Source: Verrucomicrobiota bacterium (GTDB lineage: Bacteria > Verrucomicrobiota > Verrucomicrobiia > Verrucomicrobiales > DEV007). From it: DNA of 64,000 nucleotides. Location of the stretch: the NCBI GenBank assembly GCA_045046875.1, contig JASFYY010000008.1, forward strand, positions 1 through 64,000, in the 5' to 3' direction. Below, in pieces: positions 1-15,293 of the stretch. Every line of letters starts with the position of its first letter. The stretch's first letter is position 1. Both the position numbers and the translations under genes were made by a program. The notes below the pieces were generated by a model. It saw only the letters and a program-made list of their open reading frames with translations, was not told the origin of the DNA and searched no databases.

Positions 1-116
1 AAAGCCTCCTTCTCATCATCCCCGAACAGCTTGTATTTCCCCGCCGTCCGGCTCACCACATGATAATAATTCGTCTGCCCCGCCTCACCCAACAAAAATT
101 CCCGCGTCTTTCTCAT
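1..116 (-). mobile_element. REP-associated tyrosine transposase (RAYT, Y1/HUH family), 5' end only; runs off the left edge of the window
   Basis: Not in the ORF track. Reverse complement from the ATG at 116 reads MRKTREFLLGEAGQTNYYHVVSRTAGKYKLFGDDEKEA, 29/38 identical to the N-terminus of the transposase at 27887-28948. Confidence 0.85.
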
Positions 117-231
117 AAAAACCACCCTATCAACCCCCTCCCCCTAACACAAGCATAAAACATAAATGAGGCCTGACCTATCACATATATTATTGCATGA
201 ACATGTAAATAGCCTTATTTTTTACGTATTC

Positions 232-1245
232 TTAATCTGTCAGTCCGCCAAAACAGCTGCCTTCAGGCATGGATTGGCCTCTTTGGAAAAGCCCCACATC
301 CATACGGGAGCGTCCTTCCAGCTGAACTTCTGACAGTTCCAAATAACCGTCACCTGTCATCACCCGCAATTGAGATCCCGAGCCTTCTTCACACGGCAAT
401 ATTGATCCGGGTTCAAAATCGACGAGCTTGTTACTCTGCCCATCATTGAAACCCCCTACCGTCACGGGAGGGAAAATTTTCAAGCGCTTAGCTCTCCCCT
501 TACTTTTACCCTTGCCCTCTTCTTGAAAAAATACAGTTCCGGTTCCCGGCCATGGGTCAAAAGCGCGTATTTTCCGCTCAATTTCAACTGCGGAGCGCGA
601 CCAGTCGATTACTCCATCTTCCCGGCTCAGTTTGCCGGTGTGACTCACCTTCTCCTCATTTTGCACTTCACGATCAGCTTCTCCGCTTTGCAGTAACGGC
701 AACGCCGAGGCCAAAGCCTTGGGACCCAATTGCGCCAAACGATCATGCAAAATCCCCCCGGTTTCATCCGCAGCAAGCTCTATCGTTTCTTTCCAAATCA
801 TATCGCCCGCATCCAATTTGCGCGCAATGTGCATCACGGTGATGCCGCTTTTTTCATCACCCGCTAGGATCGCAGCTTGAATCGGAGCTGCCCCACGGTG
901 TTTCGGCAACAAGGATGCATGCAAATTGATACAGGCAATCGAAGGCACCTCAATCACAACTTGCGGCAGCAAGCAGCCATAAGCCATCACCACGATCAAA
1001 TCTGGCTCCATATCTTGAAGCTGCTGCAAAATTGCAGGGTTCCGCCTCAAGCTTTCCGGCTGAAAAACCGGCACATCTCGTTCGAGAGCGAGTATCTTCG
1101 TCACCGTTGCCGTCAGCACCTGCTTACGCCCCACCGGACGATCCGGTTGAGTGAAAACCGCAAGCACTTCATGCTCCGGTTCATCAATCAGCCACTCCAG
1201 ACTGGGAAGACCAATCTCCCCTGCTCCCATCCATACAACGCGCAT
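232..1245 (-). CDS. fmt: Methionyl-tRNA formyltransferase
   Basis: Formyltransferase motifs VFTQPDRPVGR, MAYG, INLHASLLPKHRGAAPIQ, LDAGD; C-terminal IDW...IRAFDPWPG and QLEGR. Confidence 0.96.
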   Translation of the reverse strand: MRVVWMGAGEIGLPSLEWLIDEPEHEVLAVFTQPDRPVGRKQVLTATVTKILALERDVPVFQPESLRRNPAILQQLQDMEPDLIVVMAYGCLLPQVVIEVPSIACINLHASLLPKHRGAAPIQAAILAGDEKSGITVMHIARKLDAGDMIWKETIELAADETGGILHDRLAQLGPKALASALPLLQSGEADREVQNEEKVSHTGKLSREDGVIDWSRSAVEIERKIRAFDPWPGTGTVFFQEEGKGKSKGRAKRLKIFPPVTVGGFNDGQSNKLVDFEPGSILPCEEGSGSQLRVMTGDGYLELSEVQLEGRSRMDVGLFQRGQSMPEGSCFGGLTD

Positions 1246-9132: not shown

Positions 9133-9651
9133 ATGGCTAATAAAAAAATCCCCGCACCTGCCCTTATCGGACTGTTTTTGTTTTTTGTAACAAACAGTTT
9201 TGCCATCGATTCCGTCAAAAAGAAAGCCGCATCCCCTTACGTCGCCACCAATAAGGATATTCTCACTTACACCAAACAAGCCATCGGCACCAAGGTCGGT
9301 CGGGGCGAGTGTTGGGATCTCGCGCAACAAGCTCTCGATTTTTCCGGCAGCCTCTGGCGACGCCCCCACCAATTTGGCTTTCCTTTAAAAAAAGGCGAAG
9401 CTGTTCTAGCTGGCGACATTGTGCAATTCCAATCCACTCGTTTTGAATGGACTAAAGGCAATCAATCCGGCTGGAAACAACTTGGTTTTCCCAATCACAC
9501 ATCCATCGTCTACGCAGTGAAAGGTTCACAGATCCAACTTGCCCACCAAAACGTCAATGGGGTCAAAAAGGTGGTGCTGGAAGTGATCGATTTGAAACAC
9601 ATCGTTTCCGGCACTTACCAGATCTACCGCCCTTATAAAAAGAACCACTAA
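9133..9651 (+). CDS. Secreted NlpC/P60/CHAP-like (papain-fold) Cys-His protein
   Basis: Signal peptide; VGRGECWDLA, GDIVQF, PNHTSIV, HQNVNG. Confidence 0.6.
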   Translation: MANKKIPAPALIGLFLFFVTNSFAIDSVKKKAASPYVATNKDILTYTKQAIGTKVGRGECWDLAQQALDFSGSLWRRPHQFGFPLKKGEAVLAGDIVQFQSTRFEWTKGNQSGWKQLGFPNHTSIVYAVKGSQIQLAHQNVNGVKKVVLEVIDLKHIVSGTYQIYRPYKKNH

Positions 9652-10525: not shown

Positions 10526-11431
10526 ATGCCCAAACTTGCCGCTTTCCCCAAAGCCTACATGACCGCCCTCTGCAAAGACGGCACAATGAAACTCTCCGAG
10601 TGGATCGAGATCGCCTCACGCCTGGACATCGACGGCCTCGAATGGTACGCCGGCTTCCTCGAAATGCAGGATGAACAAAACTGGCCCGGTTTTCGCCAAC
10701 AAGTTGAAGACCAGGGCATGGTCATCCCAATGTTATGCTGCTCTCCTGATTTCACCCATCCCGACCGTGGATTCCGGGCCGACCAAGTGGTACAGCAAAA
10801 AAAATGGATCCGCATGATCGCCACTCTAGGCGGTTCTTATTGCCGTGTCCTGTCCGGTCAGAAACGTCCCTCCCTCACTCGTGAAGAAGGCATCATCTAC
10901 ACCACCGAATGCATCCAGGCGTGCCTGCCTTTTGCCGCTGACAACGGAATCACCCTGATTATCGAAAACCACTACAAAGACGATTTCTGGAAGTTCCCTG
11001 AGTTCGCCCAGCCCATGGACATATTCTGCGACATCGTCAACCGCATCGACCACCCTAACTTTGGAGTCAACTATGACCCCTCCAATACCTACCTCATTGG
11101 CGAAGATCCGCTCGAATTGCTGCGCCGCGTCGCCCCGCGAGTGGTGACCATGCACGCCAGCGACCGCTATCTCAAAGAAGGCAGCTTGGAAGATCTACGT
11201 GCCGAAGAAATGGGTGCCGAAGGTTACGCCCAACGCCTGTGCCATGGTGAAGTCGGTCAGGGACTCAACGATTTTGACTCCATTTTTCAAATTGCCAAAG
11301 ACTCCGGTTTTGGCAGTCCCGATCGCAAGCCGGAAAGCTGGATCAGCATCGAGGACGGCGTCGACGGCATCGAACAACTCGAACGCAGCGCCATCTTTCT
11401 ACGCCAAAAAATCGCCCAATACTGGCCTTAA
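10526..11431 (+). CDS. Sugar phosphate isomerase/epimerase (xylose isomerase-like TIM barrel)
   Basis: LIIENHYK, NYDPSN, TMHASD, GEVGQG, WISIED. Confidence 0.85.
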   Translation: MPKLAAFPKAYMTALCKDGTMKLSEWIEIASRLDIDGLEWYAGFLEMQDEQNWPGFRQQVEDQGMVIPMLCCSPDFTHPDRGFRADQVVQQKKWIRMIATLGGSYCRVLSGQKRPSLTREEGIIYTTECIQACLPFAADNGITLIIENHYKDDFWKFPEFAQPMDIFCDIVNRIDHPNFGVNYDPSNTYLIGEDPLELLRRVAPRVVTMHASDRYLKEGSLEDLRAEEMGAEGYAQRLCHGEVGQGLNDFDSIFQIAKDSGFGSPDRKPESWISIEDGVDGIEQLERSAIFLRQKIAQYWP

Positions 11432-11575
11432 CCAGGTGCAGAACCGCTTCGACTCCCACCTGCAGATATGCGTAAAAAAACCTGTAAATTGGTTGCCTGC
11501 CCCATACCACCACTGCACGACATTTTTCTACAACTTAAATATAGATTGTTTTCACGACTTAAATCTTCCCTCTTT

Positions 11576-11607
11576 ATCGGTGTTTATCAGTGAAATCAGT
11601 GGTTAAA
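11576..11607 (+). repeat. Dispersed intergenic repeat, copy 1 (ATCNGTG-type triple unit ending GGTTA)
   Basis: ATCGGTGTTT-ATCAGTGAA-ATCAGTGGTTAAA; related copies at 19745 and 20798. Confidence 0.75.
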
Positions 11608-11673
11608 TATTTTTTCGTCGTGTAGTGTGTTTCCAGATCTTAACCATCTAGTCCGCACCTAACGCTTTATCCC

Positions 11674-12198
11674 ATGGGACAAATCCGACAACTTCAGCTT
11701 TCCTACAACCCGAATCAAGATCGACTCTTGTTCCGCCTAAGCACCGCCTCGGGCCGGCATTTGGAGGAATACCGTTTCTCGCTGACCCGCCGTTACGTCC
11801 GCCTGTTGTGGAAAGCCCTGCTCGAAATTTTAAAAAACAATCTGCCCGACGAAGACAGACAAAAAAGTGAACCCACTCAGGCCGCATCGATGGCTCTCAA
11901 ACATCAGGAAGTCGTTGCCCAAGCCGACTTTAAAACCCCCTTCAAAGAAAGCCACACTTACCCGCTGGGCGAAAAACCCATCCTGGTAGGCAAGCTCAGC
12001 CTCAAAAAAGGCCCTCAGGGCGGCCAACTGCTCTCCATGCATGCACTGAAAGGTGCCGGACTGGATTTCCATTTGAATGACCAATTGCTTCACTCTTTTT
12101 GCCAATTGCTTACTCAAGCCACTCAGCGTGCCGAATGGAACCTCGACCTGGATTTTGCCCAGGCAGAAAGCCTCATCTCCAAACAAAATCTCAACTGA
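11674..12198 (+). CDS. Conserved-looking hypothetical protein
   Basis: 174-aa ORF with protein-like composition (QLSYNPNQDRLLFRL...LTRRYVRLLW; AEWNL); no function recognised. Confidence 0.7.
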   Translation: MGQIRQLQLSYNPNQDRLLFRLSTASGRHLEEYRFSLTRRYVRLLWKALLEILKNNLPDEDRQKSEPTQAASMALKHQEVVAQADFKTPFKESHTYPLGEKPILVGKLSLKKGPQGGQLLSMHALKGAGLDFHLNDQLLHSFCQLLTQATQRAEWNLDLDFAQAESLISKQNLN

Positions 12199-12285
12199 GC
12201 AAAAAGAAAGCTTGGCAGAACCACTCTTGGCATTTTAGATCAACTAACCCTTACAATTTTTTCATCAATTACGGCTACAAAGCAT

Positions 12286-12849
12286 ATGAGTAAAATCAGA
12301 ATACGGGTTCTACAGTTTTCCATGTTAGCAGTAGCTCTGCTTGGCCTGACCGGCTGCAGCCTGATCGGGCAAACTATTGGTGCCATCATCCCTCTGGCGG
12401 TTCGCTTGGCTCCGGTCAAATTGATGTTCCTCTGCATCCCGGAAAAAACACCCGTCGATACCCCCGACGGCCCGAAGGCCATCGAGTTGATCCGTCCCGG
12501 AGACCAAGTGATTGGTTTTGCCGGGCACCCTGTCCGGGTTCTGCAAATCCACGCCTATGCCGAAGACCCCACCCTCAAACGTTTTCTGCGCATCCAATTT
12601 AAAAACGGTGCCAAAGTGCAGCTCTGCGACATGCACCGCATCGATGGAACCCGTGCCCAGCATGTGAAAATTGGTGACCTTATTAATGAACAAAAAGTCA
12701 AATCCATTGAAAGCTTCGACGGAGTCATACGCTCCTACGACTTACTAACCGAAGATGAAGGCTACCAAATTTCCGGTTTACCAGTGAACAGCATGATCGA
12801 AGAAATGCTCGAAGCAGCGCGTAAAGGGCAGCAGCCCTCTCGTCATTGA
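12286..12849 (+). CDS. Lipoprotein containing a compact Hint (intein-like) domain
   Basis: Lipobox LLGLTG-C24; Hint block A C50-IPEKTPVDTPDGPKAIELIRPGDQV; block B CDMH; block F SYDL; C-terminal VN168-S169. Confidence 0.85.
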   Translation: MSKIRIRVLQFSMLAVALLGLTGCSLIGQTIGAIIPLAVRLAPVKLMFLCIPEKTPVDTPDGPKAIELIRPGDQVIGFAGHPVRVLQIHAYAEDPTLKRFLRIQFKNGAKVQLCDMHRIDGTRAQHVKIGDLINEQKVKSIESFDGVIRSYDLLTEDEGYQISGLPVNSMIEEMLEAARKGQQPSRH

Positions 12850-12908
12850 TTTACCTCTCTCAAGCAAACCTACCAGGTTACCTCCTTTTCTTTTTTAACA
12901 CTATCCCC

Positions 12909-14261
12909 ATGACCATCCACCGCCTCCCCCTGTTACTGCTCTCCGTCGTTTTTTTCAATCTGCTCGACACCCCCTTCCCCGTATTGGCAAAAGATGCTAT
13001 TCCCGCCCATCAATTTCAAATTCCGGCAAGTGACGAAGGGCTACCCGGCGCTGGCCCAATCCGTCGCTACGACTGGTTCAAAAACCTGTGGCAAAAAAGG
13101 CGCGAAACATGGTCTCAGCAAATCCAGCAGGATCAGCAAAGTCTAGTTTTTCTTGGTGATTCGATTACCCAGGGGTGGAAGTCTGATATGGGAGGTAGCT
13201 TTGGTGATGTCAAAGTCGCCAACCGTGGCATCAGCGGTGATACCACCCGCGGAGTCCTCATCCGATTAAAAGAAGACGTGCTCTCACTCAATCCTTCCGG
13301 TGTGGTCATCCTGATCGGCACCAACGATCTTGAAGAAGGAGCCAGCGCAGAAGTGATCACTGGCAACCTGAAGCTGATCATTGCCGCTCTCAAAAAGCAC
13401 AACCCAAACATGCCGATCATTCTCTGCGATGTATTCCCCAGCTCGGAAAGCAAAAAACGCCCCGCTGATCAGATTAAAAAAATCAACCAACTCTATGCGG
13501 CCGCCATCAAGGGCGATTCACAAATCACGCGCCTCGATACCTGGGCTCTGTTTGCGGATGAAAACGGCAATGCCAAAAAAGAAGAATTTCCCGATCTGCT
13601 ACATCCCAATCAAATAGGCTACCACAAATGGGCTGCCGCCCTGCGCCCCATCCTCGCCACCCATGACTTTCTCGAAACACAAGCCGATGACTTCACCCCG
13701 GAACCCGGATTCACTGCGCTATTCAACGGCAAGGATCTGACCGGTTGGGAATTCCACGCAACAGCAAAAGTTGCCAAACCTAAAAAACCCAACCCCAAGC
13801 GTCCAGCCAGACCCCTGATTAAAGTCGACATTGCCTTCGATGGAAAAACTTCCAGCAGTGATGGACGTTACTTGGCCAAAAACGGCCGCCTGATCGTCAC
13901 AACCCCAGCCGAAGGGCGCCGCATCCAGCAGTTATGGACAACTCGGGAATTCCCCAATAATTTCATCCTCAAACTCGAATTCCGTGCCACACCCAATGCC
14001 GACAGCGGTATTTTTATCCGCAAACCCCAGTTGCAGTGCCGCGACTTCCCCCTCGCCGGCCCTTACAAGGATCTGAAAAATTACAAAGCCCAGGATTGGA
14101 ATGAAATGGTGATCACCGTCAAAGACGGCCTGGCTCACTGCACCTGTAATGGTGAAGTGCTCGAAGCCGCGCTCAAAGTTCCCGCCACCGGCCCGATCGG
14201 ACTGGAAGGTGATCGCGGCCAAATGGAATACCGCCGTATTCGCTTGAAAGAGTTACCTTAA
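12909..14261 (+). CDS. Secreted SGNH/GDSL esterase fused to a DUF1080 (3-keto-disaccharide hydrolase-like) domain
   Basis: Signal peptide; GDSIT, NRGISGDT, GTND, DLLHP; then LFNGKDLTGW...DSGIF...GPIGLE...YRRIR. Confidence 0.88.
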   Translation: MTIHRLPLLLLSVVFFNLLDTPFPVLAKDAIPAHQFQIPASDEGLPGAGPIRRYDWFKNLWQKRRETWSQQIQQDQQSLVFLGDSITQGWKSDMGGSFGDVKVANRGISGDTTRGVLIRLKEDVLSLNPSGVVILIGTNDLEEGASAEVITGNLKLIIAALKKHNPNMPIILCDVFPSSESKKRPADQIKKINQLYAAAIKGDSQITRLDTWALFADENGNAKKEEFPDLLHPNQIGYHKWAAALRPILATHDFLETQADDFTPEPGFTALFNGKDLTGWEFHATAKVAKPKKPNPKRPARPLIKVDIAFDGKTSSSDGRYLAKNGRLIVTTPAEGRRIQQLWTTREFPNNFILKLEFRATPNADSGIFIRKPQLQCRDFPLAGPYKDLKNYKAQDWNEMVITVKDGLAHCTCNGEVLEAALKVPATGPIGLEGDRGQMEYRRIRLKELP

Positions 14262-14279
14262 GGGTTCTGGCACCAAAGC

Positions 14280-15293
14280 TCACTTCACCGCCACCACCAT
14301 GAAGTCGGGACCAAGCAAATGCTCGACTCTGGCCTCTTTAAACCCGGCAGCTTTCATCCAGCCTATGCAATCAGCTCCGGTGTAATCAAATCCACCCGGA
14401 GTTTCAATCAGCATATTAAGACTCATCAGTAAACCAAAGGTATTTTCCCGCCGCTCATCATCGATCAAGGAATCATAAACGACAAACATTCCTCCTTCAG
14501 GCAAAGCTTGCCAGGCCTTGGCAATCAAGACCTTTTTCTGCTCCAGATCCCAATCATGGAGGATATGCCCCATCAAAATCACATCCGCCTTGGGCAAGTC
14601 ATCGGTGAAAAAATCTCCTCCAACAAAGGACAAATTCTCGCTCAGCCCGTTAGCTTCGACATAATCTTCAAAAACAGGTTCCACCTGCGGCAGATCAAAA
14701 CCCATACCCTTTAAGTGAGGCTGCACTTTTGCTATCTGCACAGCCAAATCCCCTTGTGCGGTGCCGACATCAGCAAAAGTAGAATAATCCGACCAAGGCA
14801 ACTGTTGCGCCATCGTCATATTAGCTCCACGACTCACCCCGGTCATCGCCCCAAGGAACTCCTTCAACTTCGCCGGATCCGCATATAACTCGAGGAACAA
14901 ATCGTCGCCATCCTTCTCCTCACTCTGTGGTTGCCCGGTTTTCAAGGCGGTCGTCAGGTGAGCCCAAGTCGGGTAAAGCCGGTTATTGGCCATTTCCAGA
15001 ATACCTCCCATGTAAGACTCTTTATTTTTGTCCAAAAACAAATCCGTTTCAGGCGCATTGGAATAAATACCTTTTTCTCGATTGAGAAAACCGAGGGCCA
15101 CCAAGGTATCAAGGAAATCCTGAGCACCTCGCTCGTGCAATCCAAGACGGTTTTGCAAAGCTTGCAAATCTTCTGCTTGTTTTGCTAATTCAGTGAACAG
15201 TTCAATTTCAACCGCGCTCAATAGCGCTTTGGATGCCCAGAAGGCAGTGCCGGTTTGCAAAATATGGTCAGGAGTAAGTGGAGTATCAGACAT
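14280..15293 (-). CDS. SAM-dependent O-methyltransferase (Methyltransf_2 with dimerisation domain)
   Basis: FWASKAL, DVGTAQG, FDLP, GDFF, GHILHDW. ATG at 15293. Confidence 0.92.

Follow-up and report, generated by a model that had tools for sequence, protein, structure and literature searches.

Hint domains are known to splice, to cleave or to add cholesterol. The C-type BIL domains of predatory bacteria, said to go back to Dori-Bachash in 2009, reportedly close secreted or lipoprotein precursors with a non-splicing Hint behind large cargo domains; we know of no lysine at -5 and no phage link in them. Further bacterial secreted proteins that carry a Hint at the C-terminus are on record (PMC2362128), so the architecture class, a secreted protein ending in Hint, is not new. 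Class 1 inteins are described by Cys1, His B:10, Asp F:4 and a block G end, and Asn, Asp and Gln all occur as intein end residues (PMC4031507). Type A BILs are defined by a C-terminal His-Asn (PMC4031507, PMC7765530), and type B BILs reportedly cleave without splicing (PMC4031507). In Tetrahymena BIL2, a lysine epsilon-amine resolves the Hint thioester to an isopeptide bond (PMC8616854), the only Lys isopeptide product of a Hint in the literature examined. On the phage side, the C-terminal helices of P22 gp7 form an outer-membrane pore with paired subunits (bioRxiv 10.64898/2026.09.03.749273). Neither "Hint" nor "intein" occurs in that preprint or in a review of ejection proteins (PMC8954989). 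Full-text searches, mostly of papers outside subscription, returned no description of the family reported here.

The gene analysed here encodes a lipoprotein-Hint precursor of 187 aa (12286..12849, plus strand) in a stretch of 64,000 nucleotides (the window), and is single copy in its genome. The ORF of the original prediction was confirmed, with C24 at nucleotide 12355, C50 at 12433, H117 at 12634, D152 at 12739, N168 at 12787 and S169 at 12790; that it is a whole protein, not a fragment of a larger one, agrees with the identical 187-aa length at the related loci L001-L003. Residues 1-23 (12286..12354, +) form, from the sequence, a signal peptide II with a basic N-region, a hydrophobic core and a lipobox, which in the window protein was judged by eye and by pattern (Pfam LPAM_1 gave E 0.57 only). 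The claimed lipoprotein signal is borne out by the relatives, as the lipobox Cys is present in 189 of 190 lipoprotein-class forms, Gly, Ser or Ala precedes it in 187, and the lipobox pattern is passed by 78/80 genome loci, the remaining two ORF calls beginning within the signal. The predicted product, C24-L49 (12355..12432, +), would be a lipidated hydrophobic helix of 26 aa, acid-free and cationic, with a calculated mass of the peptide part of 2738 Da, or 2720 Da as a lactam. It is followed by the 120-aa Hint domain C50-S169 (12433..12792, +) and the C-terminal helix M170-H187 (12793..12846, +). An NCBIfam search with the window protein gave nothing meaningful and a PHROGs search no match. 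A scan of 11400-14400 called no sigma-70-type promoter and no plus-strand terminator, and the G+C of the locus shows no anomaly.

The Hint domain proposed behind the lipoprotein signal is well supported by structure prediction. An AlphaFold2 model built on an alignment of 101 relatives has a pLDDT of 93-98 across residues 51-170, and VIA-align places 117-119 residues on the MchDnaB-1 intein (6riy) and Hedgehog (1at0) at Z 17.1 and an rmsd of 1.7-1.8 A; the first non-Hint row in the structural comparison has Z 4.5. Foldseek against the PDB returned 50 matches at E<=0.001, and among the matches listed all are Hint proteins. At the sequence level, identity to the solved Hint structures compared is at most about 23% across the whole domain, a PDB sequence search gave weak intein matches only (best E 0.00034, with a profile), and all Pfam hits of the window protein to Hint families are sub-threshold. 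On the predicted model, the Hint fold call for C50-S169 is secure, and the superfamily features (fold, N-terminal Cys nucleophile and block B His) are present.

The N-terminal catalytic set is intact, comprising C50 as Cys1, C114-x-x-H117 in block B and D152 in block F. Among 399 unique full cores (from 447 full cores among 489 examined), C50 is found in 399, H117 in 398 and D152 in 398, and all three are invariant in the 190 lipoprotein forms (190/190 each). The homologue test suggested at the outset bears out the expected conservation of the lipobox Cys, C50, H117, D152, N168 and S169, present in 115-120 of 120 aligned relatives: C24 in 115 (5 gaps), H117 in 119, and C50, D152, N168 and S169, together with M170, in all 120. 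The Thr slot of block B holds C114 (12625-12627, +), the second cysteine of the Hint domain, which is Cys in 366/399 and Ser in 27/399 cores. This position is strongly coupled to the residue at -1 (z 10.3; couplings computed on 399 rows, effective 233), and Gly at -1 is paired with Ser114 in 22/24 cases. A C50-C114 disulfide could act as a redox brake in the periplasm. Carried further, such a disulfide could mean that processing never takes place in vivo and that the product is the whole lipid-anchored dimeric Hint-fold protein, a reading that would fit the -1 coupling, the presence of C114 in 175/190 lipoprotein forms and the predicted dimer. We consider it highly improbable: C114 is replaced by Ser in 15/190 of these forms while C50, H117 and D152 never vary, phage forms, which are made in the cytoplasm, conserve C114 to the same degree, and cap-less phage relatives stop at the cut.

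At its C-terminus, the domain is a different matter. The original prediction assigned N168 as the terminal Asn, S169 as the +1 Ser and a Val in place of the penultimate His, a register that proved to be off by one residue. Structural alignments of two models, read by the end points of the aligned ranges only, match the last residue of excised inteins with residue 169 and not with 168. Model residues 50..169 align to 1..145 of 6rix (a companion entry is titled N145AA) and to 1..159 of 1zd7, a post-splicing form; the model end at 169 aligns to the last residue of 1..440 in 2in0, and 45..171 to -4..145 in BIL2 N143A. We take the last residues of the aligned inteins to be the terminal Asn, from the entry titles for three of them and presumably for the others. 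A gap-free sequence comparison with the intein end in P0265 gives the same register as the structures. N168 therefore occupies the penultimate-His slot, S169 the terminal-Asn slot and M170 the +1 position, where Met is found in 398/399 cores and Ile in 1. With these occupants, the complete canonical splicing set that had been claimed is absent in register, and canonical splicing is therefore unlikely. Measured against class 1 inteins, Cys1, His B:10 and Asp F:4 are present, the penultimate His G:6 and terminal Asn G:7 are absent, their slots holding N168 and S169, and no Cys, Ser or Thr occurs at +1 in 399 sequences. The C-terminal His-Asn of type A BILs is absent as well. Loss of the intein block G end with the N-terminal motifs kept is a type B-like state, and the Hint end is of the non-splicing kind described for type B BILs, belonging neither to class 1 inteins nor to type A BILs. 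Intein-like interruption, i.e., intein-free relatives with both flanks joined, was not seen among 52 cap-less relatives in one phage family.

Splicing in a shifted register, with S169 taking the acyl group and N168 cyclising to give a lipopeptide of ~45 residues (peptide part 4919 Da), would account for N168 in 190/190 lipoprotein forms, for Ser, Thr or Cys at position 169 in 399/399 cores and for Asn, Asp or Gln at position 168 in 181/188 long forms. We nonetheless rate it as very unlikely, as the register is one residue off that of the solved inteins compared, the penultimate His is absent, position 168 is Ala, Glu, Lys or Ser in 7/188 long forms, couplings link the tail with the core of the Hint, and cap-less relatives have no tail. 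Given the conserved residues 168 and 169, a relay via S169 may still operate. The 19-aa tail had been taken for an extein, a view that does not hold: it is kept in phage proteins with unrelated N-terminal parts, it is coupled to the Hint core (L154-I171, z 6.5; R118-E173, z 6.0), and phage relatives without the cap stop at the cut and have no such tail. E173 is conserved in 382/399 cores, beside the nearly invariant M170, and residues 171-180 have a pLDDT of 82-87 in two AlphaFold2 models. The tail is a docked part of the Hint module rather than an extein.

Thus, of the proposal that the gene exists to make a lipidated peptide, the part that stands is a Hint domain behind a lipobox, releasing the peptide most likely via a thioester, and the part that falls, on the register and the +1 Met, is the spliced form. 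The mature peptides of the 190 lipoprotein forms are mostly 22 (109 forms), 26 (28), 29 (14), 18 (14) or 33 (6) residues long, with a few other lengths. An acidic residue occurs in only 2 of 190, and Asp at +2 of the lipidated Cys in none of the 189 lipobox-bearing forms. The lengths 18, 22, 26, 29 and 33 hold the lipid and K45 in one helical phase. The 35 dereplicated non-22 lengths cluster with R 0.56 at period 3.6, compared with 0.13-0.40 at periods 3.0, 3.3, 4.0, 4.5 and 5, in rows related by descent and under a lenient jitter control (p 0.0001). A Pfam scan of 101 members (E<=0.1) gave no match of the cargo to an Entericidin-like or other named lipopeptide family.

A word-free search found the same Hint and tail at the C-terminal end of proteins of 340-1357 aa, and a profile search gave 286 matches of more than 388 residues. 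In all 31 viral loci the Hint module ends a long protein. In the 10 listed viral layouts of these 31, a tail-type gene lies ahead of the Hint gene and at least one large gene in the same orientation follows it, with neighbours assigned mostly by size and position; ejection-protein genes are described as lying after tail genes and before other ejection genes (PMC8954989). The long relatives occupy the first-ejection-protein gene slot of podophages, and both this slot and a hydrophobic C-terminal helix are present. PHROG matches to the N-terminal parts of 77 long forms comprise "DNA ejection protein" 4287 in 2 and "virion structural protein" 6121/8003 in 6, with neither in 69. A GNAT-like gene precedes the Hint-capped gene in 5/31 viral loci. 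As an obligate partner it was rejected, since a GNAT profile, which may miss divergent GNATs, recovered just its 5 seed genes from the 31 viral loci and gave no match in the 80 bacterial ones. Very long Hint-capped phage proteins (820-1260 aa; L086-L108, P0318-P0378) also occur, many with decapeptide repeats (PF25296), and in some of this group a glycine-zipper protein is encoded just upstream (L087:1238-2077).

A search with the N-terminal part of one long form, P0136 (residues 20-299), gave 295 matches, 120 of them listed. With caps assigned by patterns, and the start of the S74 cap recognised by a motif that we take to mark it, the C-terminal ends of these 120 are this Hint in 8, Peptidase S74 in 51, other caps in 9 and no cap in 52. 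The N-terminal parts have nearly equal medians (297 residues in Hint-capped, 309 in S74-capped, 288 in otherwise capped and 302 in cap-less forms), and the cap-less relatives finish on a hydrophobic helix at about the cut, without the tail. The 8 Hint-capped proteins are close kin, and the cap swap therefore amounts to about one event. Because the Hint is swapped for a self-cleaving S74 cap or absent in proteins that end at about the same place, the Hint cap is, on this comparison of sequences, most likely removed. Caps seen in the P0136 family include this Hint, canonical S74, a Cys-Ser-starting S74 variant and at least one cap without a Pfam match (P0473), or there is none (example locus L113:5989-6969). 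A cultured relative, Brucella phage Pr gp23, lies downstream of a GNAT gene and carries an S74 cap. Among cultured phages there is no record with this Hint, only 11 weak mycobacteriophage intein matches; searches for cultured-phage relatives gave none for P0134 and one partial match for P0191.

In a quick tree of the Hint core (166 rows), lipoprotein and long labels need 2 changes compared with about 51 when shuffled, and an AU test does not reject a single origin for the lipoprotein clade (p 0.62, on a 58-row subset from which 8 long-branch rows were left out). Most likely the gene is a domesticated C-terminal piece of a podophage first ejection protein, namely its membrane-inserting helix together with the Hint cap, to which a lipoprotein signal was added. 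Since the tree is unrooted, we infer the direction from phage to bacterium from the phage forms being the more diverse. The window peptide matches the last helix of gp7 by position only.

On the bacterial side, 162 near-length relatives were found, and the full set holds 190 lipoprotein-class forms. A GTDB scan confirmed 116 stretches, of which 80 loci were kept: 76 in Verrucomicrobiota, 1 in Planctomycetota and 3 unassigned. Within Verrucomicrobiales, 69/401 genomes are carriers, 66 of them with one match each, and the gene is present in 4/4 genomes of the same genus; among 401 genomes drawn from the whole phylum, 2 have a full-length match and 6 further ones weak partial matches. Synonymous changes exceed non-synonymous changes in both the peptide and the Hint when compared with three close loci (29 vs 9 for the Hint). 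The gene is stand-alone, patchy, intact and chromosomal, and it is under purifying selection. A stop codon inside the match was seen in 2/69 carriers (G700:C283:2141-2659 and G667:C276:19-333), which are possible pseudogenes or assembly errors.

The neighbourhood offers no partner. No neighbour cluster is present in more than 10/80 loci, and the upstream hypothetical gene and the SGNH gene, which the original prediction thought might belong to the system, each adjoin it in just 3/80 loci, all close relatives, so an operon with the flanking genes was rejected. In a scan of 100 of the 101 dereplicated nearest neighbours (E<=1e-8), the genes that match Pfam have mainly metabolic, transport or housekeeping functions. 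No phage structural or GNAT family was found among these 100, which argues against a prophage or defence-island setting, and the only mobile or defence-like matches were one IS200 transposase, one PIN and one PD-(D/E)XK domain. Three other genes in the window were also noted. A 172-aa, probably secreted protein with an AIM3/BBC1 cysteine-proteinase-fold domain (PF25459, E 4e-21) is encoded at 9133-9651 (+) within a sugar-catabolism gene run. The hypothetical protein at 11674-12198 (+) has no Pfam or NCBIfam match and adjoins the Hint gene in close relatives only; similar structures in the ESM Atlas (score 0.93) belong to clusters without a name, most often from Pseudomonadota. The gene at 12846-14261 (+) encodes an SGNH hydrolase in fusion with a DUF1080 domain (3-keto-disaccharide hydrolase); its likely start is the ATG at 12909 (450 aa, as called in L003), so that it probably does not overlap the Hint gene.

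The Hint cap probably forms a two-fold dimer according to complex prediction. Two copies of residues 24-187 scored 0.72 compared with 0.02 for the best of 3 controls, and the runs agree in at least 63% of contacts with pLDDT of at least 79. The mark was reached by 20/30 solved pairs and 1/23 single chains; these counts hold only roughly for the present case, which used its own alignment. The predicted interface pairs strand 84-93 (12535..12564, +), which carries the conserved family motif Q87-x-H89-x-Y91-x-E93, with its copy across the two-fold axis, and includes residues 70-72, 148-149 and tail residues. K45 is absent from the confident contacts.

The lysine five residues before the cut, K45 (12418..12420, +), is a candidate acyl acceptor or catalytic amine. 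The original prediction includes neither this lysine nor the phage link, the helical-turn spacing of the peptide lengths or the dimer. Among the 399 unique cores, Lys at -5 is found in 190/190 lipoprotein, 149/163 long, 25/25 viral-locus and 18/21 unassigned forms, which gives 174/188 for the long or virion forms; the searches began from a lysine-bearing query, and these counts may be inflated. The -5 register is fixed, and Arg occurs there in 0/378 sequences; the codons in 80 genomes are AAA in 41 and AAG in 39. Because the lysine is never replaced by Arg, its pattern of conservation points to amine chemistry more than to charge. In the 120 listed P0136 relatives, K-5 is present in 8/8 Hint-capped proteins and nearly nowhere else (S74 0/51, other caps 0/9, cap-less 2/52); the lysine therefore travels with the Hint cap. 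Its couplings are weak (K45-M174, K45-E93 and K45-I171 at z about 3), and residues 41-50 have a pLDDT of just 65-66 in both models, with no gain from a deeper alignment. The 14/163 long forms that lack the lysine still keep Cys1 and the block B His. Two pairings of K45 were set aside. K-5 and E93 are lost together in raw counts (174/183 vs 7/17), but a tree-aware test found no significant association (p 0.5 on 5 pairs), and conservation is loosened in several further columns as well. A K45-N168 isopeptide of the HK97/pilin type is disfavoured, as N168 stays in 16/17 K-less forms and position 168 is Ala, Glu, Lys or Gln in 10 K-bearing forms.

Taken together, these data suggest the following course of events. 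The precursor would be exported by Sec and, along the established pathway, receive a diacylglyceryl group at C24, lose its signal and be sorted to the outer membrane. Once in the periplasm, the Hint cap is predicted to fold and probably to form a two-fold dimer, which would pair two peptides. By established chemistry, C50 would then form a thioester at L49|C50, aided by H117, C114 and D152; cleavage at this bond is very probable. The epsilon-amine of K45 may attack the thioester in cis, closing a five-residue lactam ring K45-L49, or alternatively in trans across the dimer, giving an isopeptide cross-link; the 15.5-kDa Hint-plus-tail would be released in the process. The product would be a lipid-anchored helix of 18-33 residues with a capped, uncharged C-terminus. 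That K45 takes the acyl group, in cis or in trans, as a lactam or as a cross-link, is the favoured outcome, but a tentative one that falls somewhat short of an even chance.

A competing explanation is a plain self-removing cap, in which export, dimerisation and the N-S shift are followed by attack of water to leave a linear lipopeptide, and K45 only docks the helix or helps catalysis. Such a cap would be a chaperone for solubility, pairing or timing, as would the S74 cap whose place it takes in phages. The Hint is exchangeable with S74 and dispensable in 112 of 120 listed ejection-protein relatives, and the cultured relative Brucella phage Pr gp23 has an S74 cap; plain release suffices in the ejection family, judging from the S74-capped and cap-less phage forms without a lysine at that position. 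Type B BILs reportedly cleave without splicing (PMC4031507), the weak couplings of K45 to M174, I171 and E93 fit docking, and 14/163 long forms manage without K-5. The lack of any Arg among 378 sequences at a fixed -5 speaks against it, as a docking charge would usually tolerate Arg, and we regard a plain cap as possible, though not probable. In a Hedgehog- or sortase-like transfer, by comparison, the thioester would be attacked from outside, by the hydroxyl of a lipid, an amine of peptidoglycan or some other protein, with the tail helix as the adduct-recognition region and K45 as a helper. The Hedgehog Hint ties for the best structural match and has a C-terminus of the same type, the Hint of this family has a conserved helix behind it like the SRR/ARR of Hog domains (PMC2362128), and the product would be exposed to the periplasm. 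Yet phage proteins, made in the cytoplasm, and a lipoprotein of the periplasm have the same tail and lysine and would have to share a single acceptor, no partner gene is conserved, and cap-less phage relatives need no adduct. Transfer is unlikely, and an outside nucleophile ranks below the peptide's own invariant lysine as acyl acceptor.

By origin, the peptide would imitate the helix with which an ejection protein forms its outer-membrane pore, and the leading guesses for its cellular role are that it jams phage ejection channels or that it is a membrane-active lipopeptide. The gene neighbourhoods (100 nearest neighbours scanned) support neither guess and give no sign of a role in defence, and a domesticated decoy that jams ejection channels seems decidedly improbable. 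The broader reading is that a single gene, without any separate enzyme, yields a cyclic or cross-linked lipopeptide by means of a phage-derived dimerising Hint with K-5, and that the same chemistry would mature the pore protein of many uncultured podophages; it is possible but speculative. If true, it would mean that one class of cyclic lipopeptides makes itself, that a compact tag can cyclise or cross-link itself, and that the maturation of phage ejection proteins includes a step so far unrecognised. The protein is a readily expressed test case of 164 residues, for which the lysine reading predicts a loss of 18 Da or a covalent dimer, either of them lost in K45R. Even with mere self-cutting, a phage virion module has been retained as an intact single-copy envelope gene in 69/401 Verrucomicrobiales genomes, and the interchange of Hint and S74 caps is documented.

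Compared with described systems, the podophage first ejection proteins (P22 gp7, T7 gp14) share the corresponding gene slot with the long relatives and have a Gly/Ala-rich hydrophobic helix at the end, this Hint and Peptidase_S74 (PF13884) caps replace each other on one family, and the C-terminal helices of P22 gp7 are inserted in the outer membrane (10.64898/2026.09.03.749273). Unlike these proteins, the product of the gene analysed here retains the last helix only and has gained a lipid anchor, and the gene is not part of a prophage. Hint_2 (PF13403), the profile for type B BILs, is the best Pfam match in 101/101 members scanned, and Cys1, the block B His, the block F Asp and the absence of the intein-type His-Asn end are shared with it. 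However, the window protein scores 21.8 bits compared with a cut-off of 28.4 and matches profile positions 2-41 of 147 only, and the gathering score is reached by 0/77 long forms (best 28.3). The family also differs from type B BILs in its compact 120 aa, its own motifs (K-5, QxHxYxE, CxxH and the docked tail helix), its constant place at the protein C-terminal end and, in the lipoproteins, a cargo of 18-33 residues. The Hedgehog Hog domain resembles it in structure (1at0 at Z 17.1 and rmsd 1.8 A over 119 residues), in the order of signal, lipidated Cys, cargo, Hint and helical tail, and in the cleavage, predicted here, at the Hint N-terminus only. In contrast, identity is 14%, PF01079 gives 14.2 bits against 29.7, the tail has about 19 aa, the Gly-Cys junction is not kept (Leu-Cys in the window protein, Gly in only 24/399 cores), and a sterol or other outside acceptor is not indicated. 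Tetrahymena BIL2 (BUBL1 locus, PDB 6Y75/6TMM) matches at Z 14.7-15.8 and has its Hint thioester resolved by a Lys epsilon-amine (PMC8616854), for which the present family has a candidate only. BIL2 ends in Asn143 and joins ubiquitin-like domains, whereas the slot here holds Ser and the lysine in question is part of the cargo, at position -5 from the cut. Standing outside the tested features of inteins, type A BILs and Hog domains and below the PF13403 cut-off, the family would work like Hedgehog and a type B BIL, and possibly like BIL2.
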